The position numbers and the translations under genes are program-made. A stretch of 64,000 nt of DNA from a virus. Lineage: Duplodnaviria > Caudoviricetes. Numbering within the stretch: position 1 is the first letter of the stretch; every line of letters starts with the position of its first letter. The DNA is taken from the IMG/VR virus record IMGVR_UViG_3300032038_000010, positions 64,001 through 128,000 of that record. One strand, written 5' to 3'. Below, in pieces: positions 641-56,234 of this stretch. The notes beneath the pieces are model-generated. The model saw only the letters and a list, made by a program, of their open reading frames with translations. It was not told where the DNA came from and did no database searches.

Positions 641-1393
641 TTATGAATCATCTGACTAATTTAAATCAGACATCCAATTTTTAACTTCTTTTAAATCTTG
701 TGCTCCAGCCATTTTAGCTTGAATATAAATATCAGAAGCCTGTTTCAAGTTAAAACGCTCGAACTCATCAAATAATTGATAAACACTATAATTTGCAAGA
801 GAGTTCAAATCTTTATTCTCTCCTACTGCTAAAATTGAAATGTATCTGCTAATGATTGTTACCTTTTGCCCATTATTTTTTATTTCACGCAATTTCTGAT
901 GCCGCTTACGAAACTTTTCAGCTAGCTTCTAGGCGGCCGCATTTGCCGGATCATACTATTCTGTGGCAGATTGACCAAATATACGGTCAAGGCAGAACAT
1001 TTCTTTTATTAGTTGTTGAAATTCATTATAATTATTAGCATCTATCGAAAATACTTCTTTATCATGTATTAACGCAATAGCTTGTGGAAGTATTTGTATA
1101 GTATAGTCAGGAAATAATAGTGCAAGGACCATTTTCATACAATTAACATTTTGTTGTGATTGAGGGTTCTTGTCCCTAACTATCGTCATTAATATATCAA
1201 AATTTGAAGCGTTTTCTAAACCACTTTTGTCCTCGTCAATTAATCTATCTTTTGTAAAAGTTAGAACTTGACAACCTGTAAAAAAATACTCTTCTCCTAT
1301 ATATCCAATTTCCTTAACTGATGGTTGATGTAAAGTAACTCTCCCTTGCGGAAAAGGCACATCATTATGGGCAAGCAAACCTAACTCATTCAT
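641..1393 (-). CDS. Virion morphogenesis protein (TAG read through at 956, 929, 656)
   Basis: ORFs 956..1393 and 656..892 are in frame and joined only by TAG codons; ends TAA at 641. Confidence 0.75.
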
Positions 1394-2010
1394 TTATTTA
1401 ATTGTTCCTTATCCTCAGAAAAATGGACTCCTCTATAGGAAAGAGTATACATTGATATATCTTGATTTAAAACAGCTTCATTACATCCGAGTAGTTTATA
1501 TTCTCCTACTCCAGATAATTTGATATTTTGATTAGATTTATATAATTGTTTATTTTTATTTGAGATACTATTTAATATGCCATCTATATACCCACAAATT
1601 TGAAGCGGGCGTACCTTATAATCATCAAGACACCAAGCATCCATATAACAAATTATATCGAAGTTAATAGTGTAGTCCAAAAACTCTGGATTTGCAGATG
1701 GGGCAAAATTATCAAAAGAAAGAAGCATATATGCTTTAATAGCTTCATGCTCCCCTCTTTCAATCTTTGGATTTAATCTAATATATCCATCTTTAATCAT
1801 CTTACCAAGAGAATAATCATCAATTAATTCTTTATAATCTTCATTCTCTTCATCTAAGCAGTCTGGATTATGCACAAGCAATAGACGCTTTAATTTATCA
1901 CTATATGGTTTAGTTTCAATAAACAATAACTTCAAAATTTGTTCGGTGTCAGTGCTACAAGAGAGAAAAGATGAAAATAATGGCTTAACAGTAGTTAAAT
2001 CCTTTCTCAT
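1390..2010 (-). CDS. Putative tail-completion protein
   Basis: 206-aa ORF with SD in structural operon; function from position only. Confidence 0.5.
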   Translation of the reverse strand: MRKDLTTVKPLFSSFLSCSTDTEQILKLLFIETKPYSDKLKRLLLVHNPDCLDEENEDYKELIDDYSLGKMIKDGYIRLNPKIERGEHEAIKAYMLLSFDNFAPSANPEFLDYTINFDIICYMDAWCLDDYKVRPLQICGYIDGILNSISNKNKQLYKSNQNIKLSGVGEYKLLGCNEAVLNQDISMYTLSYRGVHFSEDKEQLNK

Positions 2011-2030
2011 AATTAGCTCCTTTTATCTCC

Positions 2031-3089
2031 TTAAACAGTAACAATAGAAACATGAATTGAATTGTCACCATTTATAATGTCAAAACCTTTACGATAAGTC
2101 TTTGTATAAATTACTTCAAGATTTAAATTATTTCCATCAATAGTATAAGAAACTAATTCATCAATAGGAACAGAACCACCTGACTTTAAAGTCCATGCGG
2201 CGGCCGGCGCTCCGACTACACTATAGGTCGCAGTGTCATACGGCGCGAGTGTATCTGGCCCTTCGAGACGAATCTCAGGGGCGGCCGCTTCTTCTTCATC
2301 CTTTTGCTTAATAACATCATCAGTATTAGTATAAGTTTCTTTTAATGCAACTCTAATAATACCAGTTTCTTTATTACTTGAACTAGCTCCATAATTATCA
2401 TTATATGCCTGGACTTCCCAAGGCTTACCATTAACATACACTCTATCAAATCTCTTGAAGAATTGAGTAGTAGTTGCGTCTTTTGTAATATAAAGGAGTT
2501 TAGTATAATTCATATTATTCCAAACTACACCCTTCTTTACATTCCAAAGAATTGATTTTTCATCTGGTCCTGTCGTCCATCCAAAATACTTATGTTCATT
2601 TCCATCGGCATCTACAATAGTAATCTCTTCATCTGCTTGCCGAATCTCTCCTCTAAAATAAGCAGTTTCTTCTGAATATTGCATATATACAATCCAATGT
2701 GTATCTGGAACCCACTCTTCTTTATTACCATGAATCCAAGTAAAAACAGTTCCATTATGAAAATCAGTTTCTAATAAATCTTGATTATCTTTTACTGGAT
2801 CAATACTTACACTATTCTCCTTGAATGGAATAGAAATAATTTTATCTTCATAATCAACTTTTAACTTATCATGATTAATTAAACACCTAAAATAACTGTT
2901 AGTCTGCGCATCTATAGGCTCAGCTGCGTTATACTTTTGAACGACCGCCGCTTGATAACTATAATATAATGGTTTCTTCATACTACGTAATTTATCTTCT
3001 CTCATACGAGTAAATTGATCGGACGAAACATCATCTCCATAGTAACCTATGCGCTTCTTCATTAAATCAAGACTATTCATTTTTAACAC
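2031..3089 (-). CDS. Putative head-closure/neck protein
   Basis: Long ORF in structural operon; function from position only. Confidence 0.5.
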   Translation of the reverse strand: MLKMNSLDLMKKRIGYYGDDVSSDQFTRMREDKLRSMKKPLYYSYQAAVVQKYNAAEPIDAQTNSYFRCLINHDKLKVDYEDKIISIPFKENSVSIDPVKDNQDLLETDFHNGTVFTWIHGNKEEWVPDTHWIVYMQYSEETAYFRGEIRQADEEITIVDADGNEHKYFGWTTGPDEKSILWNVKKGVVWNNMNYTKLLYITKDATTTQFFKRFDRVYVNGKPWEVQAYNDNYGASSSNKETGIIRVALKETYTNTDDVIKQKDEEEAAAPEIRLEGPDTLAPYDTATYSVVGAPAAAWTLKSGGSVPIDELVSYTIDGNNLNLEVIYTKTYRKGFDIINGDNSIHVSIVTV

Positions 3090-3393
3090 ATTCTTCCAAT
3101 GAGCTTAACAATGAAAGACACTCAAAGATTGTTCTCCGATAATTCATAAAATCTTCTTTTTCTGTCAAAGTAAACAATCCTTCAAGCTTGCTCAAAAGAG
3201 AAAAGAAAAGAGGTTGTTGTCCGACAAACAACCTCTGTATTCCAGACAATTCTTCCATTAATGTATTTAATGGCTTCGTCCAATCTGTGCCTTCTTCTCT
3301 CATAGGAAGTAATTTATATGTTTGATTAACAAGTCTTTTAAAACTATTTTCAATAGCAGAATCGTCTATATCTATATTATACTTAATAATCAT
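3073..3393 (-). CDS. Hypothetical protein in structural operon
   Basis: ATGA overlap with the read-through upstream gene; AAGGAG SD. Confidence 0.7.
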   Translation of the reverse strand: MIIKYNIDIDDSAIENSFKRLVNQTYKLLPMREEGTDWTKPLNTLMEELSGIQRLFVGQQPLFFSLLSKLEGLFTLTEKEDFMNYRRTIFECLSLLSSLEECVKNE

Positions 3394-3980
3394 TGGGGCG
3401 CATCTCCTTTCGTGGTTAGCATAACCGCAGGAGTCTACATAATCTTTCCAAATGTAGAATGATACACTCCATTAACATCTTTTATTCTGCGTTTATACAA
3501 TCTCTGTAAATGAAACCCTTCTCGTTCATAATCCTTTTTAAGCTGGAGTAGTTTCTGCATGTGGTTGGCCTGAGATGTAAATTTAAAGTCAGCTCCAGAA
3601 TACTTCATACGCACATTTTCAACAGAAGCAAGCTGTTGCCCAATCCAATTGACAATCATATATACAGCTAAAATGTTCTCTTCCTCTTCGGTAAGTTTAT
3701 GAGTAAAATAATACTCTATTTTAGGGGTATCCTCTTTCGGCTACTCTTCTTTAGTTGTATCATCTGCTGTTTTAGTTGTATCGTCTTCTGACTGTTTTTC
3801 TTCCTTGATATAATCTAAAGGGACACGAGGAAATTCAAATTTTTGAATTGCTACTCGCAATAGCTCAAACAACATTGCTTTAGTTTCATCCTCAGTCAAC
3901 TACATATACATATCGTCTGTAATCTGGTTTAAAAATAAATCATAAACTTGAGTAAAGGGCGTATAATCTTCATTCCCCAT
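3390..3980 (-). CDS. Putative head-tail adaptor (TAG at 3900, 3741, 3435)
   Basis: ATG 3980; continuous frame except three TAGs; TGA overlaps next ATG; ITDDMYM*LT and KYSGADFKFTSQANH. Confidence 0.75.
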
Positions 3981-3998
3981 ATTACACCCCTGTTCTTA

Positions 3999-4586
3999 TT
4001 AAGATTCTTTCTTTATAATCACGCGGCGGCCTTGCTTAGTAGCGTCTCCGACTCCAGCTTCACCCACCGTAACAGCGGCCGCACGTCTTTTAGGAGCTTC
4101 CGCCTTCTTCTCTTCGCCGTCAAATTTAGCATTATTAATCTTAATAGCAGAAGCCACATCAAATCCAATCTGATTATTAATAGCATCCATCTTGTTGGTA
4201 TCTGTCAAAGGAAGTGAAACTGCCATATCTTTAATCATATCAATTACACCCTGTGGGGCAAAATCAAGACAATCCTTGAACTGATCAAGACTACCTTCAG
4301 TCAAAAGATACTTAACTTCAGCTTCACCATAAAAATATTCTGGCATAGTTTCTTTTGTAATATCTGGAAGTAATGCTTTAATCGCTTCTTCATCCTTAAG
4401 AACAAGACAGTTACGCAATTCATACTCGCCGCCACGCTCAAAAGAAAGCTTTTCAAGTTCTTCAAATGTTACTTCCTTTGTTTCTCTCGGTTGGAATTGT
4501 CTCTTAACACCAAGATCAGCAATTTCATAGCCAACGCTTCCACTAGAACGATTAATTACCTTAATAAGTTTATTTTTATCAATCAT
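3999..4586 (-). CDS. Hypothetical protein downstream of capsid gene
   Basis: 195 aa; AAGGAG SD. Confidence 0.75.
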   Translation of the reverse strand: MIDKNKLIKVINRSSGSVGYEIADLGVKRQFQPRETKEVTFEELEKLSFERGGEYELRNCLVLKDEEAIKALLPDITKETMPEYFYGEAEVKYLLTEGSLDQFKDCLDFAPQGVIDMIKDMAVSLPLTDTNKMDAINNQIGFDVASAIKINNAKFDGEEKKAEAPKRRAAAVTVGEAGVGDATKQGRRVIIKKES

Positions 4587-4627
4587 TTGTAGTTATCTCC
4601 TTTTATCTCCAATATATAACAAAAATA

Positions 4628-4655
4628 AGGGGAAGATATTATATACCTTCCCCTA
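4628..4655 (-). terminator. Intrinsic terminator after major capsid gene
   Basis: AGGGGAAG...CTTCCCCT stem flanked by A/T tracts; fits the read-through end of MCP at 4673. Confidence 0.7.
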
Positions 4656-4672
4656 TAAAATTATATCTTAAA

Positions 4673-5707
4673 TCACTTGTTCTCAACAGTGAGAGCAGAG
4701 TTCTGATATACGCAGATACCAGGATTAACAAGATATACTGCAACACCAAGCTTCTGATAAGTCTGGATTTCTCTAGACCAATCTTCCTGACTCTCAACTT
4801 CACGAACCTGTGCCTAACCTTCAAAAGCAACCTTAACAGGTTTCTCTGAACCCGTAGGGATAATATAAGCATAAGAAGGATCGATTACTTTCTTTGCATT
4901 TGTTTCATCTTCAAAGGACTGAGGAAGTACAACTACACCATGTCCCTTGTAAGTTGTAAAGTAACCATTGTCCCAAATCTGCTGCTTCATATTATCAGAA
5001 GCCCAAGTTGCATCAGGCTTCATCTGGGCTGCAAATTCAAAAGTACAATAAATAGTAGACTTGCCATAAGCATCTGCGGTCTGAAGAAGTCTATCCATCT
5101 CCTTCTCGTCGAAAGAAGTCTGAAGTGTCTTGTTTACAGTCTTAATGTCAGCAACCATAGATACAAGACCTTTGGCAATTTCACGATAAACTGCTTCATC
5201 AAGACCTTCAAGAACAATGTCATAAACATCGCTCATCTGGATACGTCCATCAAGGAACTCTTCAAAACCAATCTGGGCAGCTCCGCCGTATGCAGCTGTA
5301 GGAACTTCGAATGAATATCCATCAAGCTTGAATACTTCGTAACGGCCAGCAAGACCTACTCTTGTAACGAACTGCTTAGCTCTCTTGCGGGATGCTTCGC
5401 TAATCTTTACATTAAATACAGGCTTATCACCCTGTGCATAAGTCTTAACATCTGCAAACTGACCATATTCCTGAAGAACCTTCTGAGGAAGAACCTCATT
5501 GATACCAGTTTCAATCAGTTCGAAAACAAGATTTTTATTCTCACGATACTTAGAATAAGTACCTGCAAGTTCATTCATTTCCTTACGGAATGTTTCATTT
5601 AAGGCTTCGAAAGTAAGATTCTTTCCTTCAAAAGCGAAAGTGCTAGAAGGATTCATAGAAGCCTTTGCAGTAGCCTTAGCTAATGCAATAAGATTCGCTC
5701 TATCCAT
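4673..5707 (-). CDS. Major capsid protein, 344 aa (TAG at 4814)
   Basis: Follows portal, protease/scaffold and decoration-type genes; highly expressed codon style; frame continues AFEG*AQVREVE...DWSREIQTYQKLGV to TGA 4673. Confidence 0.8.
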
Positions 5708-5724
5708 TATTTCAATCCTCCTAA

Positions 5725-6240
5725 TTATACTCTCATTAGCTTAACGCCAGGCTGACCATCGGGCATTGTGTACACCTTAACAACCTGGAACTGCGGTCCA
5801 TCTGCCTGACCCTTTGCAAGATAACCTGTTGCAGGATCAACACCAACCATATCACCAACTTCAAGTGCAATACCATCAACTTTAGCAGAATCAGATGTAT
5901 TAGCACCAAATGTATTTGTAGTAAAAGTATCACCAGGCTCAGTTCTTAAGAGTCTTGGATAAATCTTTCCATCTGTAAAATCCTCAGCCTTAAGAGCAAA
6001 ATCCTTGTGATGTTGCTTACGCTCATCATAAAGTTTCTCTTCACTATAAACAAGCATCCAATCTCCCTTACCAGTGAGATCCATCTTGCCTGCTGCCATG
6101 TCATACTTTAAGAACATACCTTGCTCAACGATTTTGATGTTTTCATCAACAGGAAGCTGAGCATATACATGACCATTTTTCTGAGCTGAGAGATGATTAG
6201 GCTCTACCTGGCCGAATCCTGTACGACTAATCTGTGCCAT
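5725..6240 (-). CDS. Putative capsid decoration/head protein
   Basis: 171 aa between scaffold and MCP. Confidence 0.55.
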   Translation of the reverse strand: MAQISRTGFGQVEPNHLSAQKNGHVYAQLPVDENIKIVEQGMFLKYDMAAGKMDLTGKGDWMLVYSEEKLYDERKQHHKDFALKAEDFTDGKIYPRLLRTEPGDTFTTNTFGANTSDSAKVDGIALEVGDMVGVDPATGYLAKGQADGPQFQVVKVYTMPDGQPGVKLMRV

Positions 6241-6258
6241 AATTTATTCTCTCCTTAA

Positions 6259-7689
6259 TTAAATATTGTTCTGAATCTCTTCAACTGCTTTAATCCAGTC
6301 TGGAGTTGAATCAGAATCTGCATTTTCTAAATTAAAAGTTACAGAAGGATTTTCTTCTGTCTTATGATTATCATTTTCAGAAGTAGATGTTGAATCAAAA
6401 TTGACCTTTTTTCTATAGCAAATTACTGCTAATTTAGATTCAATTTCATCAAGAGAATACTTTCTCTTATTTTCAATTACATCTTTCTTATCTTCATCAG
6501 AAAGCATATAGAATTTAGCAATAAGTTCATCTTTCTTCTGATCATCAACAGAGTTCTTAAACTCTACAAGAGTTTCGTTCTCTGCTTTAAGAGCAGCAAA
6601 CTTATTAGTTAATTCTGATACTTGAGCTGCAAGTTTAGCATATTCTTCATCTGTATGTAAAGAGTTTTTAGATGCAGGCTTCTTCTCATCTTCCTTCTCT
6701 TCTTCAGAATTAGAATCGCTGTTATCATCATCAGAATTATCATCTGTGTTATCATCCTTCTTGTCATCTTCCTTATTAGCAAACTCTTCATTTGCCTCAG
6801 AAGCAACAGTAGATTCTACAGATGCTCCTTCTGTATCTTCTTGATTTTCTGTCATATTCGTTTGAACATTACTGTCCTGTGTTGCAGAAAAATTTTCATT
6901 ATCTGTAGTCTGTGCGGCCGCCCCTTCAGTAGGAGCACCAGTAGTAACATCTACAGTTGTATTAGTTTCAGTATTCACTGTATTTCCTCCTTGTAACGCA
7001 AACTCTAATTGTTTAACCATTGAATATAGAGTTTTCGTAAAATTATCATTTATGGAAAAAGTATTACTTACTTCTGGTGCAGTTACGCTTGATCCCTCGA
7101 AGCAAGGCTCTACATCATCACCTAAAATACATAACTTTGAAACTATTGCGTCATTTATAATAAAAAATTCCATACCAGATTTACTATCTTCTGCCCAATA
7201 TCCATCTAAAGAACTATTATCAAGTTCCATGGACTGCGGTTTCCCATCATCATCAAAAACCTTTTGAGCTTCAGGATACTGGCCTGTCCATAAATAACCA
7301 GTAGTCATCAAATAAGTTCTAGTGACTTGATTTCCAAAATCATCAGTCTCATTAAAATCTTTGAACCAAACTTCCGCATCAGTAGGCACAAATCCATATG
7401 GCTTAGTATCAGAACCAAGATGTAAACCTTCATCATCTAATGTTACTCTGTCGCCATGTCCCATGAAATCCTCTTTATTATCATTGTAATATCCAACAAT
7501 AGGATTTCCACGAAGTGTTAATGCCATCTTTTCTGCGGCGTCCTTATTAATAAAACTGCCGTTACGATTTTTTCCTAAATAGAAAACTTTAATCTCACAT
7601 TTAGAAATAAATGGAGAAACATCCAAAGGAGTTAAGTTTACAAATTGGACATTATCCATCGTAGCGACAGATGCGTGTGGTAAACTCAT
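6259..7689 (-). CDS. Prohead protease-scaffold fusion
   Basis: QSMEL and LCILGDDVEPCFEGS protease-type motifs, acidic linker, C-terminal coiled coil. Confidence 0.7.
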   Translation of the reverse strand: MSLPHASVATMDNVQFVNLTPLDVSPFISKCEIKVFYLGKNRNGSFINKDAAEKMALTLRGNPIVGYYNDNKEDFMGHGDRVTLDDEGLHLGSDTKPYGFVPTDAEVWFKDFNETDDFGNQVTRTYLMTTGYLWTGQYPEAQKVFDDDGKPQSMELDNSSLDGYWAEDSKSGMEFFIINDAIVSKLCILGDDVEPCFEGSSVTAPEVSNTFSINDNFTKTLYSMVKQLEFALQGGNTVNTETNTTVDVTTGAPTEGAAAQTTDNENFSATQDSNVQTNMTENQEDTEGASVESTVASEANEEFANKEDDKKDDNTDDNSDDDNSDSNSEEEKEDEKKPASKNSLHTDEEYAKLAAQVSELTNKFAALKAENETLVEFKNSVDDQKKDELIAKFYMLSDEDKKDVIENKRKYSLDEIESKLAVICYRKKVNFDSTSTSENDNHKTEENPSVTFNLENADSDSTPDWIKAVEEIQNNI

Positions 7690-7700
7690 CTGAATCTCCT

Positions 7701-9323
7701 TTACATTGACTAGCGGTTGGCTAGGGTTTTGTCTGACTTCTCGTTATCCTCTTTCTCTGGGCGACCTACATTACCATCAGACCCAGATTGGTTAGACGAT
7801 GAACCGCCGCCCGCAATCTTTGAAATAGTATCACCATTCATAACATTACTTGTAAGAGGTGGAATAAATACTGTAACTAAATTCAATATATTATTTTCCC
7901 AATAAGCATTAGCTAATATAGAACTTTGGCTTTGTCCAAGAGCAATCTGAGGAAGCATTTTAGAATAACCCATCTGTGCCTGCTCTTTATATAACTTGGC
8001 CATCTCTTTATAGTTATAAATAGTGGTTTTTAATATCTGCGCTTTGAAATAATATTTCTTTGGTGATTTATTATAAGGCTCAATAATTAAGTTAAGAAAA
8101 TCTTCAAACTGTAAAAGCAAATTATAAACAGAAGCTTCATCATTTAAAATTGAATTTTGTAATGCAGTATTACCATCGCTATTAAATTGCAGCTGCGATA
8201 CACCTGCTTCATTATATACGCTTCTTTCTACTCTTGTTAAATCATCAGTTTGAGTAGTATTGCTTTTGTCTGACATATCAGCTACATCTACATCAGCAAA
8301 AGTAGTTAATACATCAAGACCAATAGCTCGACTAAGCATTTTAACTGCATTATTATGCAGCTCTTGTGCTTCGTCTACATCAAAAATCAAGTCACCATTT
8401 TTATCCAATGGCATCTTTTGAATAATGATTTTTAATAACTTTTGAGCCATGCGCTTTCTATCCAAATCCTGCGCTTCATCCAAATCAATAATAGCAGGAA
8501 TGACAGATATAAAAGGCGGAAAGTTTTCACCATTTAAACTGAATTTAATAGTTTTAGTTGGATCAAGTAAATACCAACCAGAAGTATCTCCTTTAAATTC
8601 AGCAACTAATTTACCTTGTTTGTACGCCTTATATCCCTTATTGAAATCTTCAGGGAATAATTTTAATATTCTTGTCCTTAAAGTCGCATCTGAATATTGG
8701 TCATCAAAGAACTTCATATTAAACTCTACAGCAGGGCGTCCAGCAACATTATAGCGACTTCTACAATATCCAATAGGTAATTCTTGAACAGATAATTTAT
8801 CATTATCAAGGATATATCCATAATAACATCCATTACGAATTACTTTAAGCGCGACTTCCCCAAAAAATTTCTTAGGCCCAAAATCATCTGTATATTTAAG
8901 GCAAGAGAAAAGGCTGTTAACAATCTTATCTCTCTGCGCTTTTGGCAGCTCTTTGCTATCTTGTAAAATACCAAGTCCGCCATTAATATACGGAGTAATT
9001 AACCAATCATAATTATAAAGATAAGCCATATATCTACAAAGTCTTGAATAAATACCGCTCGTTTTATAAAAGAAATTAGATATTTCTCTCATAGCTTTAA
9101 GATCACCATGGCTTATTGCTTTTAGAACGTATGTTTTATCTCCATATTTTGGATTGACACGCTTTAATTCACCTACATTTACTGTAGCATCGTCTAATGT
9201 TTTAATTCCCACTCTAATTTTAGAAAAATCAGTTGGGACACCAGCGTAATTAGTTGGTATATTATTATCTGCAAGGCGCATATTAAAACCTTTTTTCTTA
9301 ATCTCTTCAATACGATTAATCAA
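7701..9323 (-). CDS. Portal protein (TAG at 7710)
   Basis: About 540 aa preceding protease; C-terminus GRPEKEDNEKSDKTLANR*SM then TAA. Confidence 0.75.
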
Positions 9324-22773: not shown

Positions 22774-24691
22774 ATTAGAAATGGGAGCTTTGGTTAATAA
22801 ACTTAATAAATATACTGAAGCTTATGATGCAGGAACACCTCTTATTTCTGATAAAGAATGGGATGAATTATATTTTCAATTAGTGGAAGCAGAAAAAGAG
22901 ACTGGAATTATCTTACCTAATTCACCAACTCAGTCCATTCATTTTCAGACTGTTACTAAACTAAATAAAGTAAAACATAATCATCCAATGCTTTCATTAG
23001 ATAAAACAAAAGATGCTAATACAATTCAATCGTTCCTTGGAGAAAAAGATTGGATTGCTATGTGTAAAATGGATGGATTAACTTGTTCTTTAAAATATGA
23101 AGATGGAAAATTAGTTAGCGCGGAGACAAGAGGAAATGGAGAAATAGGAGAAGATATACTCCATAATGCACTTTGTGTAAAATCTATTCCTCATAGTATT
23201 CCATTTAAAGATGAACTAATTGTAGATGGAGAAATAATTTGCACTTATAATAATTTTAAACTATTTTCTGAACAGTATAAAAATCCAAGAAATTTTGCAT
23301 CGGGCAGTATAAGATTGCTTGATTCAAAGGAATGTTTTAAACGTAATCTTGATTTTATTGCTTGGGATGCTATTACTAATTTTGCAAGTACATTATCTAT
23401 CAAATTACTTATATTGCAATCTTATGGTTTTACTGTTGTACCAAGAATTATCAAAGATGATTCAATTACAATAGAAGACGCTATTAATGAACTTCAAGAA
23501 AGAGCAAATGAGTCATCATATCCAATTGATGGCATTGTATTTAAATATGATTTAGTAACAGATTATAATGCGGCAGGCCGCACAGACCATCATTTTAAGG
23601 GTGGAATGGCATATAAATTTTATGATGAAACTTATTCCACTAATTTAAAATATATTGATTGGACAATGGGGAAAACAGGTATTCTTTCTCCTGTTGCTGT
23701 ATTTAATCCAGTAGATATTGATGGTACTACTGTAGAAAGAGCTTCTTTACATAATATTAGTATTATGCAAGAAACAATGGGTATTCCTTATGAGGGAGAA
23801 GCTCTTGAAATCTTTAAAAGTAATCAAATCATTCCGCAGGTATATTCTGCTGAAAAGAAAAATGATATTATACCTTTAGAGATACCTAAGATTTGTCCTA
23901 TATGCGGTCAGCCTACTGAAATTAAAGAAGATGGTATTGCTAAAATATTATATTGCTCAAATCCTAATTGTGAAGGTAAACTATTAAATCAATTAGACCA
24001 TTTTTGTGGTAAAAAAGGATTAGATATTAAAGGATTATCAAAAGCAACACTATCTAAACTAATTGATTGGAATTGGGTGTCTTATTTTAAAGATATTTAT
24101 AGATTAAATGAACATAAAAAAGAATGGATACAGAAACCTGGATTTGGTGATAAATCTGTTCAAAATATTTTAAATGCAATAGAAGAAAGTAGAAAACCAG
24201 AATTATGGCGAGTGATTGCGGCCGCCTCTATTCCAAATATAGGTGGAGTTGCATCTAAAGAATTAGCTAGTTATTTTAAAACTTATGCTAATTTTAGAAA
24301 AGCAGTTGAAGATAATTTTGATTTTACTCAACTAGAAGATTTTGGAGAAGTCGCAAATTATGATATTTTGAATTTTAATTATACAAATATTGATGATGTA
24401 GTATCTTATGCTTTTGAAATTCAAGACGCGGCGGCCGCCCCTCAGGAGATGTCGCTAGACAAGGTTCAGTTTTGTATCACTGGTAAATTACAGCATTTTA
24501 AAAATAGGGACGAATTAAAAGCAAAGATTGAGTCTCTTGGCGGTAAAGTAACTGGATCAGTATCAAGCAAAACTAATTATCTTATTAATAATGATATTAA
24601 TTCAACTAGTGGTAAAAATAAGACAGCTAAATCTCTTAATGTTCCAATCATTAGTGAAGATGACTTCCTGCAAATGGTATCTTCTAATTGA
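22766..24691 (+). CDS. ligA: NAD-dependent DNA ligase
   Basis: HPMLSL, KMDG, TRGNG, NPRN, DGIV, Zn finger, BRCT. Confidence 0.95.
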   Translation: MDKLEMGALVNKLNKYTEAYDAGTPLISDKEWDELYFQLVEAEKETGIILPNSPTQSIHFQTVTKLNKVKHNHPMLSLDKTKDANTIQSFLGEKDWIAMCKMDGLTCSLKYEDGKLVSAETRGNGEIGEDILHNALCVKSIPHSIPFKDELIVDGEIICTYNNFKLFSEQYKNPRNFASGSIRLLDSKECFKRNLDFIAWDAITNFASTLSIKLLILQSYGFTVVPRIIKDDSITIEDAINELQERANESSYPIDGIVFKYDLVTDYNAAGRTDHHFKGGMAYKFYDETYSTNLKYIDWTMGKTGILSPVAVFNPVDIDGTTVERASLHNISIMQETMGIPYEGEALEIFKSNQIIPQVYSAEKKNDIIPLEIPKICPICGQPTEIKEDGIAKILYCSNPNCEGKLLNQLDHFCGKKGLDIKGLSKATLSKLIDWNWVSYFKDIYRLNEHKKEWIQKPGFGDKSVQNILNAIEESRKPELWRVIAAASIPNIGGVASKELASYFKTYANFRKAVEDNFDFTQLEDFGEVANYDILNFNYTNIDDVVSYAFEIQDAAAAPQEMSLDKVQFCITGKLQHFKNRDELKAKIESLGGKVTGSVSSKTNYLINNDINSTSGKNKTAKSLNVPIISEDDFLQMVSSN

Positions 24692-26941: not shown

Positions 26942-27613
26942 ATGAAATTTGAAAATACAGAAGTAATGAATTTTAAAGGGGCTTTCAGAGGATTGCGTAA
27001 TCCTCTTGAGTCCTGGTCTAAATCAGATAGCTCATTTGATAATGGGATGACCATAATCGGAGAAAAAGACTTGAATCTGGCGCAACGCATGATTAAAGCT
27101 GGATCAAGTGATTCTAAATTTCTTCGACAGATTTTTGTGTCTGTAGACATCACGGGCCCGTTATACTGGCTCAAGTAGCTAGACACTTACAAAGTAGCGA
27201 CTGTTGCTAATAGCACCTCAACGATGCACAAATTAGCGTCCACTCCTATTACAAAAGAATGTTTTGAAATGGGAGATTATAACAATCTTAAAGTATATGA
27301 TAATGAACCATATAAAATTAATGATTATACTGATGATTGTTGGGATGAAATAATTAATATTTGCGAAACACTTCGTCAAAGATACAATGAAACAAAAGAC
27401 CAAAGGTACTGGAAAGAATTAATTCGTATCTTACCAGAGTCTTGGCAACAGACTAGAACTTGGACAAATAATTATGCGGGCCTCCGCAATATTTACTTTC
27501 AAAGAAAAAATCATCGTTTAACTGAATGGTCAAATGATTTTTGCTCTTGGATTAAAACTCTTCCCTATGCAGCAGAATTAATTACATACCAGCCAGAGAA
27601 ATCTACTGATTGA
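26942..27613 (+). CDS. ThyX-like flavin-dependent thymidylate synthase family (TAG at 27176)
   Basis: PLYWLK*LDTYKV...STMHKL...LPESW.Q.RT...R.NHRL.EW; two track ORFs are in frame. Confidence 0.7.
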
Positions 27614-37133: not shown

Positions 37134-37544
37134 ATGAAAGAAGTAAAAAGAACTGAGCGCGGATGGGCTGGACATTTTTGCTGTTCTAGGGACTGCGCCT
37201 TCCGCAGAAATACTTTGCTTGAGTATAAAAATAAAAAATGGATAATTTCAACAGTAGGTTTACAAATTTGCAGGCATACTATATCGCCCTATTGTAAAGA
37301 AGGTGATGTAATGACCATTGGATACAATCGTTGGTATGAAACAATGGCATTTGAATCCCTTTATAATGAATATGATGACGCGGATGTTACAAAAGAGATT
37401 GAATTTGAAAGTGACTGGGGCATTTGGGGAGAGACATGGGAAGAGGTTATGGAAAAATATAATCAGCATCCTGATCTTGCAGCAAATGAAATGCATGAAA
37501 AAATTGTTGAAGAATTGATGGAGAAAATTAAAAATGAAATATAG
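37134..37544 (+). CDS. Hypothetical protein
   Basis: TTGACT-17-TATAAT promoter; GAGGT SD. Confidence 0.7.
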   Translation: MKEVKRTERGWAGHFCCSRDCAFRRNTLLEYKNKKWIISTVGLQICRHTISPYCKEGDVMTIGYNRWYETMAFESLYNEYDDADVTKEIEFESDWGIWGETWEEVMEKYNQHPDLAANEMHEKIVEELMEKIKNEI

Positions 37545-48534: not shown

Positions 48535-48537
48535 GTA

Positions 48538-48566
48538 AAAGAGAGGCGAAAGCCTCTCTTTTTTTA
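48538..48566 (+). terminator. Intrinsic terminator
   Basis: AAAGAGAGGC GAAA GCCTCTCTTT plus T tract. Confidence 0.8.
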
Positions 48567-48770: not shown

Positions 48771-49265
48771 ATGATTATATTAGCATTAGATATTTCTACT
48801 CACAGTACTGGCATAGCTGTATTTGATGATACAAAATTAATACATTATGAATGTGCAGTTGCATCTTCTACTAATACTTTTAATAGAATTGATAAAATTA
48901 CAACACAAATTGAAAATGTTGTTGAAAAATATAAACCCACTAAAGTAGCTATAGAAGATCCATTACCAGCAGAGTCTGGCCATAATATGTCTACATATAA
49001 AAAACTTACCTGGGCGCAAGGCATTATTGGAGATATGTTAAATCAACATAAACTGAATTTTGATAGGCTATATACTTCTTCAGAGTGGCGCTCTAAAGTA
49101 GGAATCGCAACAGGAAAAGGCCGCAAAAGAGAAAGCCTTAAACCAAAAGATATAGCAAAAGCTAAAGAACTATTTGGAGTAGAAGAAAATGATGATATTG
49201 CAGATGCGATTCTAATCGGTAAAGCATATGCAGACTAGGCTTGTAATGAAATAAATTGGGAATAA
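48771..49265 (+). CDS. RuvC-like Holliday junction resolvase (TAG at 49236 probably read through)
   Basis: LALDIST..TG, AIED, WRS, DDIADAILIG. Confidence 0.8.
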
Positions 49266-49320
49266 AAAGATGCGGGAGCCCGTCCAATGTATGGATATAA
49301 CTGGCTCCCGCGATTTTTGT

Positions 49321-52011
49321 TTAACTAAAGAATAACATATCTCCAATATTATGGCTATGTCTTTTTCTTTTTTTATCTTCCTCCTGCTTTATATAATATA
49401 GTCCATATATAAAAGCAGAGAATTTATCTTTAGGTATTCCTCTATTACTTTGTTTCAGAATAATATTAACGCCTTCATTATCTTCAACAAGATTAAGCAT
49501 TTGCTATTTTAATCTAGTTGTCAAATTGAACGGTACAAGATAAGTATTTCGCTCATCTGAAGTCATCGTCTGTCCGCGCTTAGTCCCCATCAATTTAAGT
49601 TTAGCCTGCTGTTCATCAATTAAGAATTTAATCTTACCACTGCTCATTTGAGTTTGTGCATAAGAATACGCTTCTGTATTAATAGGAGCATTAGCCTTCA
49701 TTAAGAACATAGCGTCATTCTCAAAGTCTGGGCCTTTTGCTTTTTTATACTGATTAGCAACATCTTCATTAGTTCCGCCCTCAACCCCAAATGGAGGTAA
49801 ATTATCTCCAGTCTCAGGATCAATTTGAGCTTTTGTCATAAAATCAATCAAACCGACACCAAGACCATTAGCATCAATAGATAATATTCTAGCATGATAT
49901 TTATAATACAATTTCTTTAATTTAACTGCTTGTACTTCAAAGTCTTCTGCTTCATAAGTATATATATTAACTAATGATTTAAGCGCCGCCCCTTGCGGCT
50001 GAGGATAAACTTTAAATACACAAGCTTCTGTAGTACATCCGATACGGCCTACATCAACCCCAATTACATAATAAGCATTTTTAGCATTGCGCGAACTGTA
50101 CTCATATTCAGGCTGATTTAATGTTCTATGTTTATCAAACTTCTCTGCTGAATAAAAAGCATTTTCTGCATCACCAGACCAAATTGAACGATATTCTCGA
50201 TCAAAAGAATCTTCATTATATGTACCTTGTAATTTTAATTGATCTACAAAGTCTTCATCAAGAAGTCCTTCATTAACTGGTGTTTCATAAGTACCGCCAA
50301 GAATCATATATTTATCTGGTTCAATAACTGATTGAACAAAGATTTCAATTAGCTTGTCATAAGCAAAAGAGTTTTTCCAACCTGCGGTAGTAATATAAAT
50401 TTGCGATTTATTAGGTAATTCAGTTCTATCTCTTGAACCGTCAGGTAAAAGTCTATCTACGTTAGTAGTAGGAATAAGAACTTCATTAAGAATATCTCCA
50501 TCAATTAATACACATTCCTCAAGGAGAAGACTATTACGACGTTGGCCTCTAGAACTTTCTCTTGCTGCAAGAATGTCAATTTCTGAACCGTTTTTAAATA
50601 CATAATGAACATCATCTTTTGTGTGCTTAGTTTTACCACGTTCCCAGTTAATTTCATTGGCAAGAGGTGGAATCAGCCGACAAATTTCATCTATCTTAGC
50701 GATGGTAATGGAGGCAGCCTGTTCTTTCAGGATTGTTATCATAAGGCTTTTTATCCTTATTTCTTATACTTGTTATTCGTATAAGCTCAGCATATCTTTT
50801 CATCTACGACTTTACGTTTAGATGTCGCGGCCTCGTGGAGGGATTATACTTGTCAATCTCACCCTCTATGCGTTGCCCCTGACTCCTTATCTGCTAAAGA
50901 AGCCTTCGGTTCGGATTAGCATTTCAGCTTTCCCGCTTAATTCCGCGATTTAAAGGTTTTATATATTAAATTTCTTTAATATTGGGCAAATTAATATTTT
51001 TATGATATTGACTACCATTAGTAATAAAGTCTTGATAATGTTCATATTTTCTATCTAAATAAATATTACTATCTTTATATAAATAAGTAAGAAAATTATA
51101 AACATCTATTAGACTACTAAAAACATATCTTTTTGCTCCGTCTTCTCTATGGCAAATAAAAATTTTATTATTTTTATTAATATCTAAATCTAGGGCATTT
51201 AAACTGCCTTTAATAAAGTCTTCTGTTCCAATCCATCCAACTTGAAAACAACTAGACGTATTAGTAAACCATCCATCTCCATCAAAATATCCTCTTAAAA
51301 AATGTCTCGTTAATTCAGAAGGAACTTGTTCCTAAGTCGGATATTTTAAAATTAATGATTTTTTAGGAACACAGCCTTTATTAATTAAATCTTGTTTACA
51401 TTTATCACTTCTAAAACTCATTCGATATGATTTAGAAGATTCTCTATACCCAATTTTATTAGATATTCCCATAAAATTTCTAAATTTTTCAATTTGATGT
51501 AAATCTTTTTCTGCTAATCCCAATTCGATTTTATCTTCTTTAGAACCAACAGAACCATCTGCGTAAAGAAAACCAAGCCAATATGCTTTTTCTTCTGTGT
51601 CAATATGCTCAAATTGTGTAAGGACGTTTTTTGTACTCATTTCGTACTCCTCCTGTAAAAATATTAAATAAAAAGTTTACCCCCTGTACTAATCGCGGCG
51701 TGCTACCCTGGGTAGAACACTGCTCTTAGCATCAAGCCCATCATTGATAAGAAAGATTTAGAGAAAGCACGAGGGAAAGTAGCATACACAAAGCGATGCC
51801 GCATGATCACTCTTAAATAAACTCTTTGATAATAGAAGAATTTAAAAGTTGAATCTTCGCCTTTTATTTGATCAACAAATATATCTGGATAAGCTCGATA
51901 AAAAGAAATCAAATTCCGCATTTCAGGAAGAATTGCTCTAATTCTATCTTCAGTTACGTCTTGCTGGACAATCTTATCATCAGATAGAGACAATAAATTA
52001 GCTAGACTCAT
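49321..52011 (-). CDS. Terminase large subunit; exons 52011-51679 and 50727-49321; TAG at 51703 and 49504
   Basis: PRAFSKS Walker A variant; splice restores TGG|KEQ; LLEE Walker B; GVDVG, IDANG and KDKFSA nuclease motifs (the last only after read-through). Confidence 0.88.
50728..51678 (-). mobile_element. Group I intron in terminase gene, ORF located 5' of the core
   Basis: Exon GGGU pairs with GCCC after the ORF; AATTAAGCGGGAAAG, CTAATCCGAACC, GCAACGCATA, AAGATATGCTG; terminal G. Confidence 0.85.
50966..51640 (-). CDS. Intron-encoded LAGLIDADG endonuclease, 224 aa (TAG at 51332)
   Basis: AYWLGFLYADG and FLRGYFDGDG motifs lie on either side of the TAG. Confidence 0.88.
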
Positions 52012-53273
52012 GACTCTTCCTCCTCAGACTCGCCTGCATCTTTAGCGGCTTCCGCGGCTTTAAACTCCTCAAAGTCAGCCATATCTTGATCTGTGACTGG
52101 CACATAATTAAGTCCTTGAGATTTTGCTTCCTATCTGTCTCGCTTTTGAGACTCTTGAATCTCTTTCTTCTTCATGTAATCTTCAATTTCTCTTGACAGC
52201 GAAGGATCTTCTTTAACAAGATTACTATAATATTCTTTCATATCATTAATATCTTTATCAACTATATCAAGAGGAACTTCAAGATTCCATTGAGGTATTT
52301 TTCCACCTTCTTTTTCACAAAATGCTACTACTTGACCAATAGCATCAAAGATACCATCTTTATCGACCTTATTCTGTGCAGCGGTAAAGTTTGCGGATTT
52401 TCTTAAAGACTCATAGGTTCTAGTTAATTTAGAGAATCCATCTAGGTCTCCCATGTCAAGAGCCTGATTCATTTTAAGATTAACTTTGCAAATAGTAATC
52501 AATGTATTTTGGCTGTCTGGAGTTTCATCGCTGATACCAAATTTCTTAGCCATTTTAACATAATTACTTTCAAGCTGTACCCATTCGTTAGGCTTATAAA
52601 GGCGGCCCCACTTCATAGCAAGATATTTTTTATCATCATCTGTAAGGTCGGCCGCAGGATTCGGGAGGTCAGTCTCGCTAATGAAAGCATCCTAGTCCAT
52701 CCGATTACCGACCGCCGCATCTATGTCTTTACTATCTGTTGGTGCAAGCTCCGCATTTTGTATCTCTGTTGGCATGAGAGTTTGATATTCCGCTTTAGAA
52801 ATCTTACCTTCCGCAAGGTCATTCCGTAGTTTTTGTTCATACTCATGCCGCTCTTGTATTTCTTCTTCTGTCTCTTTCCGCGCTTTTGCTTTATTCATTT
52901 CAAGAAGCATTTCTGTGTCATCCCAACCATAGCTAGTCCATGGTTTGATCTTCATAGCAGACAAATACTTACCTACGACAGAAATACCAGTTAGATTTGG
53001 ATTTTTAGCAAAAGCGCGGTCTCTTAATGTATTCCACTTCTCTGGAATATAAGGAACATCCAAATCTTTCAAAATCCATGTAAAAGTTTCTGGGTCAAAA
53101 TTATCTACATGCATAGTAAGACAACGCTTACACATTTTTGTCTTACTACCATCTTTGTACTGATAAAAATTATTTGATTTGCTCCAAGTTCTTTCCTTTT
53201 CACAATAGCACATATCTTTTTCATCAGGGATTTGACCTTTTGGCTCGACTTTTTTAGTTTCTTCTTCAGCCAT
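52008..53273 (-). CDS. Zn-finger protein upstream of terminase, possible small subunit (TAG at 52692, 52131)
   Basis: Two track ORFs joined by TAG; TGA overlaps terminase ATG; CKRC and KWGRLY. Confidence 0.7.
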
Positions 53274-53279
53274 TAATTA

Positions 53280-54425
53280 TCAAACTCCTTTCACTAATTT
53301 AATTTGCTTATGCTTATTTTTTGCATTGCGGCAATCTTTACATATAGAATAAAAGCCATCTTTACTTGTCTTATTTTTTGAAAAGAACATACTGTGAGCT
53401 AATTTAATTTGACCACAGCGTGAGCATCTCTTCCATTTACCCTTTTCTACATTGGTATAATACCAGGTCAAATAATCTTTTTGAGCGTGGTCCGCAATCA
53501 TTTTAGGTATTTTTTTGCGCCAGAGAGACGAAAGATATTCAATGGAGTGCCGCACACCAAAATCTCGTTGAAGAAGGCTTTGTATTTCTTCATTAGTCTT
53601 ACCATCAATTTTATAAATAACTAAATCATAATACATAGGATATTCTTCTTCAAGAGTCTAATCAATAAGATTTTCTAAATCAATAATTGCCCATTTAGCA
53701 TCACTATTGACTTTATCCCAACTATCCATTTTTAGTTTAGAATAATGACATAGCACTGCGCTTACTACATCTGGGTTGAGGAAACTGAAGCCTCTAACCT
53801 ATAGAGTTCCATCTTCTTTAATTTTAATATCTTCTTCCCAAGACATAGTAGAGAAGCTCTTGATGCCATTTGAATAAGGCATTGTAGGATGATAGGCTGC
53901 TTTAAGTACATATTGGTCTTTCCGCATTTCTATCATTTGCTTTTTCAATAAATATTTCTTTTTACCTGTTGCTAAATCGCATTGCTTTTCAATTTCCGCA
54001 ATACTATCTCTAAGTTCTTTTAGCCCAGGTATTTCTGCGACATCTGTTTCAGTAATTCCAATTTTAGGTGTGAAGATAATATTTTTATCATTTGCAATCA
54101 TATTATAAATACCATCTTCGCCATTTTCAAAAGTAGCAACTAAACCTTCAAAAGACATTTCACGCTTATTGACAGTTACCATTCTATTCTAAGTAATAAT
54201 CTTCTTTTGTTTACGTTCTTCTTTGTCCATAGCAAATACTATATAGTCAGATAAAATTTCTAAGTAACGTGGTGTTAATTTTTCTGAAGGAGTTTGCTCA
54301 ATAATTTTTTTAACTAATTCATTGCGGGCAGCCGCTGTCTAGAGCTTATAGTCTAGTTTAAGTGGTTGATTAGACTCGTCTAATTCCGCATTAGACGGGG
54401 CCGCCGCATTATTATATTCTTCCAT
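53280..54425 (-). CDS. Putative transcription regulator with HTH-like segment and C-terminal Zn finger (TAG at 54339, 54189, 53799, 53658)
   Basis: AAGGAG SD, ATG 54425, 381 codons with only TAG interruptions; TNEEIQ...YLSSLW; CSRC...CKDC. Confidence 0.65.
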
Positions 54426-54603
54426 GCTTAAGTACTCCTTTTATGTTTATTAGCCTCCAACTTCAGGTAAGCCTTATTTCAATTCTATACTTATAGTATA
54501 CCAGAAAATTTTTGAATTGTCAAGACTCGATTAAACACTTTTGACTTGAAAGTTACAAAAAATTATTATATAATATTTATATAAAGTAAAGGAGATAATA
54601 ATT

Positions 54604-54780
54604 ATGAGTAAATATATTGATCCAAATAATCCTGGGTATGAAGATCCAAGAGAACAATCGATTGGATGGCGTGGCGAAGGGCGGCCGCTTGGGATTAAAA
54701 CAGAGGCGTGCCCAGTTGATGGACATTATTGTGAGCAGCCGCAATGTGAGAACTGCAATTTTGAAGAGGTGTCTCAATGA
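54604..54780 (+). CDS. Small Cys-rich protein (58 aa, below track cutoff)
   Basis: AAGGAG SD; TGA overlaps next ATG. Confidence 0.55.
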   Translation: MSKYIDPNNPGYEDPREQSIGWRGEGRPLGIKTEACPVDGHYCEQPQCENCNFEEVSQ

Positions 54781-55214
54781 TTATTACATTAACTGGTCAT
54801 AGACCGCCAAGATTACGGGGACAAGAGAAAGAAATCAAAACTTGGCTAAAAAATATTTTACATTCTTTTGGAGAAAATAATATTTGCATTTCTGGGATGG
54901 CTGCAGGGGCAGATCAATTATTTGCGTATACAGCAATAGAAGAAAACAATAAATTATGGTGCGCTTGGCCTTATCATAAAAAGAATCGAGATTATGCAGA
55001 ATATTTAGAAGATCATGCTGATAATATTATTTTTGTAAATCAAGATTATAGTCCTGATTGTTATACCATAAGAGATAAATTTATGGTAGACCAAGCTGAT
55101 ATTGTATTAACTGTTTGGGATGGGAAACCATGGGGCGGCACTTATAATACAATAAAGTATGCAGAACAGCAAAATAAAACAATCATTGAATATAGAGGAT
55201 TAAAAAATGAGTGA
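54777..55214 (+). CDS. SLOG-superfamily (YspA/DUF1273-like) protein
   Basis: TGHRP, SGMAAGAD, RD.FMVD, VWDG..GGT..T..YA. Confidence 0.8.
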   Translation: MIITLTGHRPPRLRGQEKEIKTWLKNILHSFGENNICISGMAAGADQLFAYTAIEENNKLWCAWPYHKKNRDYAEYLEDHADNIIFVNQDYSPDCYTIRDKFMVDQADIVLTVWDGKPWGGTYNTIKYAEQQNKTIIEYRGLKNE

Positions 55215-55941
55215 AGCATTAAAAGCGCGGGCGGCCGCTCGTCACCAAATGATACTGGACCGATTTGCGGGAGCGACGGCCGCAAGTATTAAATCAAGTA
55301 AAATTTATAAAGAAAATAGTGTATTTATTCCAAAGGGTAGCTGGGTTAATACACATACTGTCTTAGCTGATAACAACTCTGTGGGGGCGATTGATAGATA
55401 CTCCGAAGGGCGGACTGCAGTCCTTAATTTTGCGAGCTTCCGCAATCCAGGCGGCGGTTACATGCAGGGAATGATGGCGCAGGAAGAGGCACTATGTTTC
55501 GCATCTAATCTTTATGAGGTTTTATCTAATTTTGAAGATTATTATGAAGAAAATCGAAAAGATTTAAATGGCGGGATGTATTATGATAGAGCTATTTATT
55601 CGCCTGATATAATCTTTATGTATCATAATAAACAAATTAAGTGCGATGTTATTACCTGTGCGGCGCCCAATTTAAGAAACGCTCAAGGAGATAGAATAAG
55701 GAATCATAAGGTATTGGTCCAGCGCGCGCACTTCATTAATCAAATAGTTGAAGATAATAATGTTGATACATTAATTCTTGGCGCATATGGATGCGGAGTT
55801 TTTAGACAGAATCCTTATGAAGTTGCGGAAATATTTAAGAATGAATTTAAAAATACTACGGTAAAGAAGATTATTTATGCGGTTCCCGCAAATTTAAATG
55901 AAGAAAATTATTATGCTTTTGAAGAGGTGTTAAATAAATGA
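55207..55941 (+). CDS. Microbial-type PARG macrodomain (TIGR02452/DUF2263-like)
   Basis: VLNFAS..NPGGG...AQEEALC, ITCAAPN, LILGAYGCGVF.QNP. Confidence 0.88.
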   Translation: MSEALKARAAARHQMILDRFAGATAASIKSSKIYKENSVFIPKGSWVNTHTVLADNNSVGAIDRYSEGRTAVLNFASFRNPGGGYMQGMMAQEEALCFASNLYEVLSNFEDYYEENRKDLNGGMYYDRAIYSPDIIFMYHNKQIKCDVITCAAPNLRNAQGDRIRNHKVLVQRAHFINQIVEDNNVDTLILGAYGCGVFRQNPYEVAEIFKNEFKNTTVKKIIYAVPANLNEENYYAFEEVLNK

Positions 55942-56234
55942 TTATACAAGATTTACGATATGAAGAGTTAGTACCTTCTCCATATAAATATCTTGCTTTT
56001 GAATTACCTGTTGATAAAAAGGGTTAGTTATTGTATGATATAGAACAATCAATGAGGATTCTTCAAGTAATTCAAGAAGGTACTGGGAAAAATTATGCTG
56101 GCTATTTTGCTATTATGCCACAAAATGTAATAAGAGAAATGGCTAAAGAAGATATTAAACAATATATTAAAGTATTAGAGAGGATGATAACAGATGGCGA
56201 GACGAACGAATGTTCTGAAGATGACAGCGACTAA
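55938..56234 (+). CDS. Hypothetical protein (TAG at 56025)
   Basis: GAGGTG SD; ATG overlaps upstream stop; frame joins track ORF 56031. Confidence 0.6.

Follow-up and report, generated by a model that had tools for sequence, protein, structure and literature searches.

Genome layout and in-frame TAG codons

The stretch of DNA analyzed here (the window, 64 kb) comprises bases 64001-128000 of the IMG/VR virus record IMGVR_UViG_3300032038_000010, a single linear contig of a gut or rumen phage, 136,945 bp in length, with a G+C content of 34.7% and an estimated completeness of about 89%, and the subject of this work is the meaning of the codon TAG, which occurs in frame in many of its genes. Positions given below are those of the window unless they are marked as genome positions. 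The window is made up of three gene blocks: a virion block on the minus strand (641-9323), which encodes the portal protein and members of phrog families of unknown function; a replication block on the plus strand (9887-47364) with topoisomerase II subunits, NAD ligase, DnaB, RecJ and Pol III alpha; and, again on the minus strand, a packaging block (49321-54425), where a split terminase is encoded together with a LAGLIDADG endonuclease and a sigma-factor-like protein.

An earlier note, made from the bare sequence of the window, had listed 25 in-frame TAG codons and proposed that they stand for glutamate and not for glutamine. All 25 are indeed TAG (seen as CTA on the plus strand in the case of minus-strand genes), all lie in frame, and the open reading frames (ORFs) containing them are bounded by TAA or TGA; about 12 further in-frame TAGs of the ORF list are probably situated upstream of the true starts. 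In the whole genome, 216 in-frame TAG codons were counted across 173 TAA/TGA-delimited ORFs, 113 of which end in TAA, and TAG makes up 216 of the 2844 glutamate codons (~8%) when counted among them. Under code 11 the greedy coding density was 0.750; it reached 0.889 when TAG was treated as a sense codon, as compared to 0.777 with TGA and 0.849 with TAA read as sense, and the longest ORF was extended from 781 amino acids (code 11) to 3141 amino acids when TAG was taken as sense. Matches to Pfam and PHROG families run across the TAG codons of the dUTPase, the portal protein, TerL and the LAGLIDADG endonuclease. Taken as a whole, the pattern greatly exceeds what chance would produce.

The genes richest in TAG are located outside the window, just upstream of it. 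The 3140-aa ORF upstream of it (genome 51016-60438, L004:6016-15438, minus strand) contains 20 TAGs, and its homologues carry 56 TAG, 8-10 TGA or zero in-frame stops, tracking the code of each phage. Also upstream are the genes of a tail fibre protein of 1612 aa with 23 TAGs and of two tail proteins of 879 and 679 aa with 22 and 21 TAGs, respectively; when tail genes of 879 aa and 744 aa were used to look for related loci, no relatives came up. A reverse transcriptase (RT) of the diversity-generating retroelement (DGR) type is encoded outside the window on the minus strand (genome 31843-33078, L003:843-2078; PF00078 relatives, phrog_1423), and its gene contains 13 TAG codons versus 18 GAA/GAG codons.

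The use of TAG is strongly dependent on the genome module. Its share of Glu-type codons is 14% in the minus-strand late block versus 1.4% in the replication block (138 TAGs per 13,642 codons versus 11 per 11,693 codons), and, block by block, it amounts to 0-3% early versus 19-34% in the tail blocks, with a maximum of 34% per 10 kb. Judging by their sequences, the late genes written with TAG are those of the virion, tail, packaging and DGR, plus a few nucleases. The sole early gene that could stop at TAG belongs to the replication block (37134-37544, plus strand), and a TAA is found five codons on (to 37562); read-through of this gene after a code switch would add just five residues. In two relatives with heavy recoding, G002 and G006, TAG is present in every genome module. 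In the nearest standard-code sister genome, G001 (L106-L112), TAG terminates only 6 of 132 ORFs, and such rarity of TAG as a terminator fits the idea that a stop codon falls out of use before it is reassigned.

Residues aligned with TAG

The meaning of TAG was assessed with a self-calibrated Codetta-like test, in which the ORFs, with X placed at each TAG, were searched by tblastn against relatives (about 90 loci around the portal gene from IMG/VR and metagenome-assembled genomes (MAGs), plus four whole genomes) and the residues were tallied per query column. Twenty substitution profiles were learned from the sense codons of the same genes, and the TAG columns were scored under each of them. 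Over the 108 alignable TAG columns, glutamate was the best amino acid, glutamine, aspartate and lysine being 25, 40 and 41 nats below it; in the leave-one-codon-out calibration glutamate was ahead by 21 nats, and with only the two standard-code relatives used it stood 59 nats above glutamine (E in 54 of 154 columns, the next residue, S, in 16). Glutamate won 1998 of 2000 bootstraps genome-wide and 1961 of 2000 with window columns only. Data were available for 22 of the positions listed in the earlier note, and these gave an advantage of glutamate over glutamine of 11.6 nats (1997 of 2000 bootstraps), glutamate being the majority residue in eight columns and glutamine in none. The claim that TAG corresponds to glutamate, based initially on family consensus motifs, is thus supported by computed alignments to relatives.

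The residues found at the 108 TAG columns (Glu 30%, Lys 9.5%, Ser 8.5%, Asp 8%, Gln 7.5%) give a profile resembling that of the GAA/GAG columns of the genome (E 0.45, Q 0.07) and not that of its CAA/CAG columns (Q 0.34, E 0.11). Opposite TAG, the two standard-code relatives have GAA 23 and 24 times versus GAG 9 and 4 times; since the aligned codons are mostly GAA and not GAG, the glutamate signal is not an effect of the one-base mutational neighbourhood. As a control, each sense codon was left out in turn, and 59 of 61 were recovered, the only failures being ATG and TGG, because these have no sister codon to learn from. CAA/CAG were called as glutamine and GAA/GAG as glutamate, TGA in the TGA-recoded relative G005 was called as tryptophan by 143 nats, and TAG in the published phage phAss-1 was called as glutamine, in agreement with its authors. 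In the relative G002, TAG was assigned to glutamate by 126-162 nats. Alignment of the TAG columns mainly to glutamine, which the earlier note had named as an outcome speaking against its claim, was not observed in the source phage and was observed in phAss-1 and seven other relatives; as the same test yields glutamine for these, the method separates the two amino acids.

Within the virion block, the TAG of the portal protein (phrog_2739, 540 aa; 7701..9323, minus strand) is at 7710, that is codon 538 of 540, and E was found at this column in all 71 relatives having a sense codon there, with 12 more relatives carrying TAG and the same C-terminal extension being retained in the relatives. The phrog_3853 protein (196 aa; 3390..3980, minus strand) has TAGs at 3900, 3741 and 3435, of which the first corresponds to E in 48 of 49 relatives, the last to E in 13 of 19, and the middle one is variable. 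The columns of the phrog_4051 protein (250 aa; 641..1393, minus strand; TAG at 956, 929 and 656) are mixed, namely D/S/E, R/K/A and S, and the phrog_4088 protein (344 aa; 4673..5707, minus strand) has a TAG at 4814, which is considered below.

The packaging block encodes the large subunit of terminase in two pieces on the minus strand. The TAG of the C-terminal piece (49321..50742; phrog_15503 positions 125-243, phrog_24618, phrog_2) at 49504 is aligned with E in 50 of 60 relatives, and 16 relatives have TAG, while that of the N-terminal piece (51664..52011; phrog_15503 positions 31-125) at 51703 is aligned with A or S. The two pieces match consecutive parts of phrog_15503, and between them sits the gene of a LAGLIDADG homing endonuclease (50966..51640, minus strand), in which PF14528 and phrog_4645 span or follow the TAG at 51332 (E in 3 of 5 relatives). 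By its arrangement, the terminase gene looks like one split by an intron or an intein-type insertion; no group I intron was detected around the LAGLIDADG gene by Rfam. The adjacent phrog_3314 protein (421 aa; 52008..53273, minus strand) has TAG at 52692, where 41 of 44 relatives have E, and at 52131, where 38 relatives include 14 with E, 9 with D and 9 with A. The four TAGs of the sigma-factor-like protein with a C-terminal HNH-like part (phrog_5767; 53280..54425, minus strand) at 54339, 54189, 53799 and 53658 fall in columns of K/E, D/E, mixed and K/E/R/D composition, respectively.

The remaining TAG-containing genes of the window lie on the plus strand. In the trimeric dUTPase (PF00692; 47876..48307), the PF00692 match extends over positions 3-129 of the 129-position profile and includes the TAG, which is codon 87 (48134, in the motif DSDYRG-x), and the column contains E in 6 of 7 relatives and E, T and E in the three best solved dUTPases. 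A nuclease of the GIY-YIG family (PF01541; 25362..26294) has TAGs at 25458 and 25701, where homologues are few, and at 25812, where 3 of 3 relatives have E and one more has TAG. It is followed by a ClpP-family protease (PF00574; 26306..26932), the TAG of which (26360, codon 19) has no aligned column in relatives, and by a phrog_6721 protein (26942..27613) with E in 2 of 2 relatives at 27176. The latter ORF, containing YWLK-x-LDTY with TAG at x, had been labelled as ThyX-like, a designation that found no backing, as it has neither a ThyX family match nor a Pfam match. In the RuvC-like resolvase (PF02075; 48705..49265) the column of the TAG at 49236 is variable (K, D, T). An ORF of 98 aa (55938..56234), with an in-frame TAG at 56025, has no family match and no aligned relatives, and a ThyX label was not confirmed for this ORF either. 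Just upstream of it, at 54777-55941 on the plus strand, a SLOG/DprA-like protein (weak PF02481/PF06908) and a microbial-type poly(ADP-ribose) glycohydrolase (PF10021, E 1e-26) are encoded in succession, and this pair may represent a counter-defence or NAD/ADP-ribose module.

Two proteins encoded outside the window were compared with more distant homologues. Among 119 homologues of the RT with 42-48% identity, Glu was found at TAG columns in 119 of 119 (column 128), 105 of 119 and 90 of 119 sequences, TAG encoding three of the four most conserved Glu columns of the protein; four of its CAA/CAG columns are 97-100% Gln, and none exceeds 32% Glu. In the 679-aa tail protein, compared with 150 cluster representatives, two TAG columns are 81% and 90% Glu. 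Public collections contain near-identical proteins from phages of this group (P0001; Logan contigs L086, L087) that carry Q introduced by the gene caller at TAG. One of them, P0001, an RT with 96% identity, covers 12 of the 13 TAG positions and has Q at every one of these, and it was discarded as uninformative, the caller having used TAG=Q. As public proteins of recoded relatives are often translated with TAG as Q, the tests with distant homologues are pushed towards glutamine.

Suppressor tRNA and codes of related phages

A tRNA with the anticodon CUA, which the earlier note had suggested looking for elsewhere in the genome, was found outside the window at genome positions 23216-23289 (L002:7216-7289), within a tRNA cluster, through inspection and folding of the local sequence as well as with a custom cloverleaf scan. 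It is characterized by the anticodon loop CUCUAAA, the first pair C1-G72, A73, the D stem GUCU/GGAU and a 4-nt variable loop, AGAA. Glutamate identity in Escherichia coli is determined by U11-A24, U13-G22, the lack of residue 47, a strong 1-72 pair and the anticodon YUC. Upon inspection, tRNA(CUA) combines its GUCU/GGAU D stem and 4-nt loop with a strong first pair (C-G, not G-C), and its anticodon is CUA, not YUC; in overall similarity to it, the tRNA-Glu of the phage ties with tRNA-Lys and tRNA-Gly at 64-65%. The phage also encodes tRNA-Gln(CUG) and tRNA-Gln(UUG). In the cluster (genome 17.5-25.8 kb, L002:1500-9900), ARAGORN detected 13 tRNAs and Rfam 18, none of them with CUA. With default settings ARAGORN overlooks 6 of the 19 cluster tRNAs (Glu, Tyr, Pro, both Gln and the suppressor), and non-canonical T loops, e.g., GGCAGCA, GGCAGGA and AGCGUAA, occur in several of them. 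The other genes sought on the suggestion of the earlier note, those of a glutamyl- or glutaminyl-tRNA synthetase (GluRS, GlnRS) or a release factor, were not found in the phage contig, release factor 2 (RF2, PF00472) giving no match, with the contig being ~89% complete, so that parts could be missing.

The codes of 104 portal-bearing relatives were then compared. Of these, 31-32 use TAG=Glu (mostly members of one clade), 8 use TAG=Gln and 19 use TGA=Trp; per-locus scoring against standard-code proteins gave about 30 Glu and 8 Gln calls, each by tens to >100 nats. Pooling of 39 TAG-recoded sets (phAss-1 left out) gave 2955 observations, among them E 1414, Q 359 and D 287. In the portal tree of these 104 sequences, 28 Glu-type phages constitute one supported clade, and the source phage falls into a sister group together with standard-code genomes and another Glu-type contig, the TGA=Trp and TAG=Gln lineages branching elsewhere. 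The relatives were binned with MAGs of Bacilli, Erysipelotrichaceae, Acholeplasmatales, Clostridia and even Methanobrevibacter, which is a weak host clue. The C-terminal domain of the GlnRS type was detected in one of five bins with Glu-type phages versus three of five with Gln-type phages, a difference that is suggestive and not significant.

The cloverleaf scan revealed tRNA(CUA) in 6 of 6 near-complete TAG-recoded genomes and in 0 of 3 that are not TAG-recoded. All four Glu-type suppressors (source phage G000, G002, G006, L205) have C1-G72, and the D arms of those from the source phage, G002 and G006 are 17-18 nt long. In the Gln-type suppressors (G007, G010 and three in phAss-1), the first pair is U1-A72 or A1-U72, or else U1 is mismatched; D arms are 16 nt long in the three measured, and G73 is present in all but G007 (A73). 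For L205, a separate contig of 175 kb, glutamate was predicted from its C1-G72 suppressor and then found: in its 906-aa protein (12 columns) Glu is the best residue, and Gln scores 7.8 nats lower. The suppressor of G006 (L162-L168, 129,983 bp), located at 114330-114420 on the minus strand, is distinguished by an extra arm of 22 nt and by the pair G3-U70. The latter pair is the classic identity mark of alanine tRNA. The TAG columns of G006 read Glu (64/108) despite this pair. Bacterial GatCAB discriminates between U1-A72 and G1-C72 and also recognizes the D loop (PMC2811023).

Glutamate reading, alternatives and known codes

On the evidence of the sequences, we regard TAG in this genome as a sense codon for glutamate, used mainly in late genes, with TAA and TGA kept as stops, and estimate the probability of this reading at roughly 0.8. 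According to the scheme proposed, tRNA(CUA) would be made early or in the middle of the infection, alongside the TAG-free genes, and would be charged with glutamate by the host GluRS, its anticodon keeping U35 and differing from the Glu and Gln anticodons only at position 36. With its strong C1-G72 pair and larger D loop, it would be acted upon poorly by GatCAB and, in a host having that enzyme, by GlnRS, both enzymes presumably relying on a first pair of the U1-A72 type. Full translation of the late genes would be achieved only once the suppressor is present, as was proposed for other recoded phages. The logic follows, by analogy, that of the indirect Gln-tRNA pathway (a non-discriminating GluRS together with GatCAB), in which a Glx-type tRNA is charged with glutamate first and the first pair and D loop decide on glutamine (PMC2811023). 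The broader proposal, namely that a whole lineage of large gut and rumen Bacillota phages possesses a natural UAG=Glu code and that the first pair and D loop of the suppressor set Glu or Gln, is more tentative, and we hold it to be slightly less probable than even. Under it, a suppressor with C1-G72 and a larger D loop would remain Glu-tRNA, out of reach of GatCAB and GlnRS, and one with a pair of the U1-A72 type would be converted to Gln-tRNA.

A number of observations weigh against this reading and its mechanism. Conservation is lower at the TAG columns than at true Glu columns (E 30% versus 45%), and alignments give the residue expected by selection, not the residue inserted. The formal margin of Glu over Gln is only 2.4 nats for the RT (12 columns) and 1.1 nats for the tail protein overall. 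Column 472 of the latter is Q at 61%, a value that may be inflated, as public gene callers translate TAG as Q, and column 4814 is the only one in the window with Gln as the commonest residue (19 of 57, without a majority). The T loop of the suppressor itself, GGCAGCA, is unusual, and G7 is mismatched with G66; the tRNA was missed by ARAGORN (default, relaxed and with introns allowed) and Rfam, no close homologue of it was found, a search with the anticodon arm returning only unrelated suppressors, and its comparison with 198 phage tRNAs was uninformative as to isotype, all of them being about 60-70% similar. Finally, the charging route is deduced from the identity rules of model bacteria.

These points have to be considered together with the alternatives. 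If TAG were glutamine (NCBI table 15), the glutamate signal would consist of tolerated Glu-to-Gln replacements; glutamine is the sole TAG meaning reported for phages with a code departing from that of the host (10.1101/2021.08.26.457843; PMC9523058), sister lineages do use it, the phage has two tRNA-Gln genes, and columns 4814 and 472 favour it. However, glutamine scored 21-59 nats below glutamate and accounted for 2 of 2000 bootstraps, TAG is located at an invariant Glu of the RT, the same method does return glutamine for phAss-1 and seven relatives, and the suppressor lacks the U1-A72 and G73 of the Gln-type ones, so that we consider this explanation very improbable. A somewhat better case, still an improbable one, can be made for ambiguous decoding, in which a Glu-charged suppressor is partly amidated or partly charged by GlnRS, resulting in a mixture of Glu and Gln at tolerant sites. 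The lower conservation of TAG columns relative to GAA/GAG columns and the lead of Glu over Gln by only 1-2 nats in the two distant-homologue tests agree with it, and amber suppressors built on tRNA-Glu bodies in E. coli insert largely Gln. Yet Gln is not enriched at TAG columns (7.5% versus 6.8% at true Glu columns), invariant Glu positions are written as TAG, and the split between C1-G72 and U1-type suppressors tracks the Glu/Gln split among the phages.

The code might also be that of the host, which would read TAG as glutamate after losing RF1 and using its own tRNA-Glu(CUA), with the phage following it as code-25 phages do; this would change who drives the code and not the residue. The presence of TAG in every module of G002 and G006 and the fact that TAG almost never terminates genes in the source genome are consistent with such a host; the sharply modular use of TAG (early 0-3% versus tail 19-34% of Glu-type codons), the phage's own tRNA(CUA) and the standard or TGA=Trp codes of close relatives on the portal tree speak against it. 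Moreover, rpoB has no in-frame stop in four MAG bins with Glu-type contigs, a fifth bin having no rpoB match, which is weak host evidence; all in all, a host-matched code seems unlikely. Hardly credible is the assumption that the TAGs are true stops reflecting pseudogenes, split genes, low-level read-through or assembly errors. Although termination is conceivable at 7710, 3073 and 37542, where the TAG lies within a few codons of TAA/TGA, there are ORFs as long as 3140 aa that contain 20-23 in-frame TAGs and are otherwise undisrupted, family matches cross the TAGs, the same usage recurs in dozens of independent assemblies, and both Glu and the C-terminal extension are retained by the relatives even at 7710.

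Glutamate as the meaning of UAG is known from eukaryotic nuclear codes, namely those of peritrich ciliates (NCBI table 30) and Blastocrithidia (table 31), where a suppressor of the tRNA-Glu type is used. Those codes differ in that UAA also encodes Glu and the reassignment is genome-wide in a cell, whereas here TAA is the main stop and the code is phage-borne and module-biased. For phages and bacteria, no report of TAG=Glu was found in the literature searched, in which phages were described only with TAG=Gln, TGA=Trp or host-matched TGA=Gly. In phages with a code unlike that of the host, the authors of one study state that they saw only TAG-to-Gln and TGA-to-Trp changes (10.1101/2021.08.26.457843), and for code 15 phages TAG=Gln has proteomic proof (PMC9523058). 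The latter phages (crAss-like, Lak, Garnet/Topaz; 10.1101/2021.08.26.457843) resemble the source phage in the enrichment of TAG in late structural genes, a phage-encoded tRNA(CUA), TAA/TGA stops, depletion of TAG as a terminator and close relatives with the standard code; they differ in that TAG is Gln there, whereas Glu columns and a C1-G72 suppressor are found here. A phage-encoded tRNA(CUA) is common in TAG-recoded phages, though not universal among them. Some Lak and Agate phages encode RF2, which is not an obligatory trait and for which the source contig has no PF00472 match. In the Lak study, TAG was occasionally aligned to E, and Gln was concluded.

A distant relative of the source phage, phAss-1 (proposed ‘Phassvirus’, OQ749652, PMC10607447; about 136 kb, portal 40% identical), annotated with table 15 and filed by NCBI under ‘Caudoviricetes code 15 clade’, likewise encodes Pol III alpha and numerous tRNAs and has TAG in its virion genes; it differs in using TAG=Gln, with three suppressors that have a weak first pair (U1 or A1) and G73. 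The ‘Agate’ clade (Borges et al., 10.1101/2021.08.26.457843), with genomes of about 127-154 kb from the guts of cattle, pigs and tortoises, comprises a mixture of TGA, standard-code and a few TAG members. The likeness to it, limited to size, habitat and mixed codes, includes recoded modules, related genomes with different codes and a homing endonuclease with recoded stops; the differences are that for Agate the recoding described was TGA=Trp, two TAG genomes having RF2, and that Glu was not reported.

So far, two kinds of stop codon recoding have been distinguished in phages, TAG=Gln and TGA=Trp, and prodigal-gv, Pharokka-gv, the NCBI ‘code 15 clade’ and protein collections rest on that. Annotation of the source genome with table 15 puts Gln in place of ~8% of its glutamate codons, and of up to one third in tail genes; the misread residues include catalytic or invariant Glu, and the public RT with 96% identity already shows this error. 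The correlation with the first pair suggests a simple link among suppressor identity, the Gln-tRNA pathway of the host and the code, and the C1-G72 suppressors, predicted to insert Glu, may supply natural amber suppressors of this specificity. Sister phages on one portal tree employ four codes (the standard one, TGA=Trp, TAG=Gln and TAG=Glu) and represent a natural system for the choice of codon meaning, in which the indirect Gln pathway, if the proposal on the lineage is true, would be the evolutionary hinge between two phage genetic codes.

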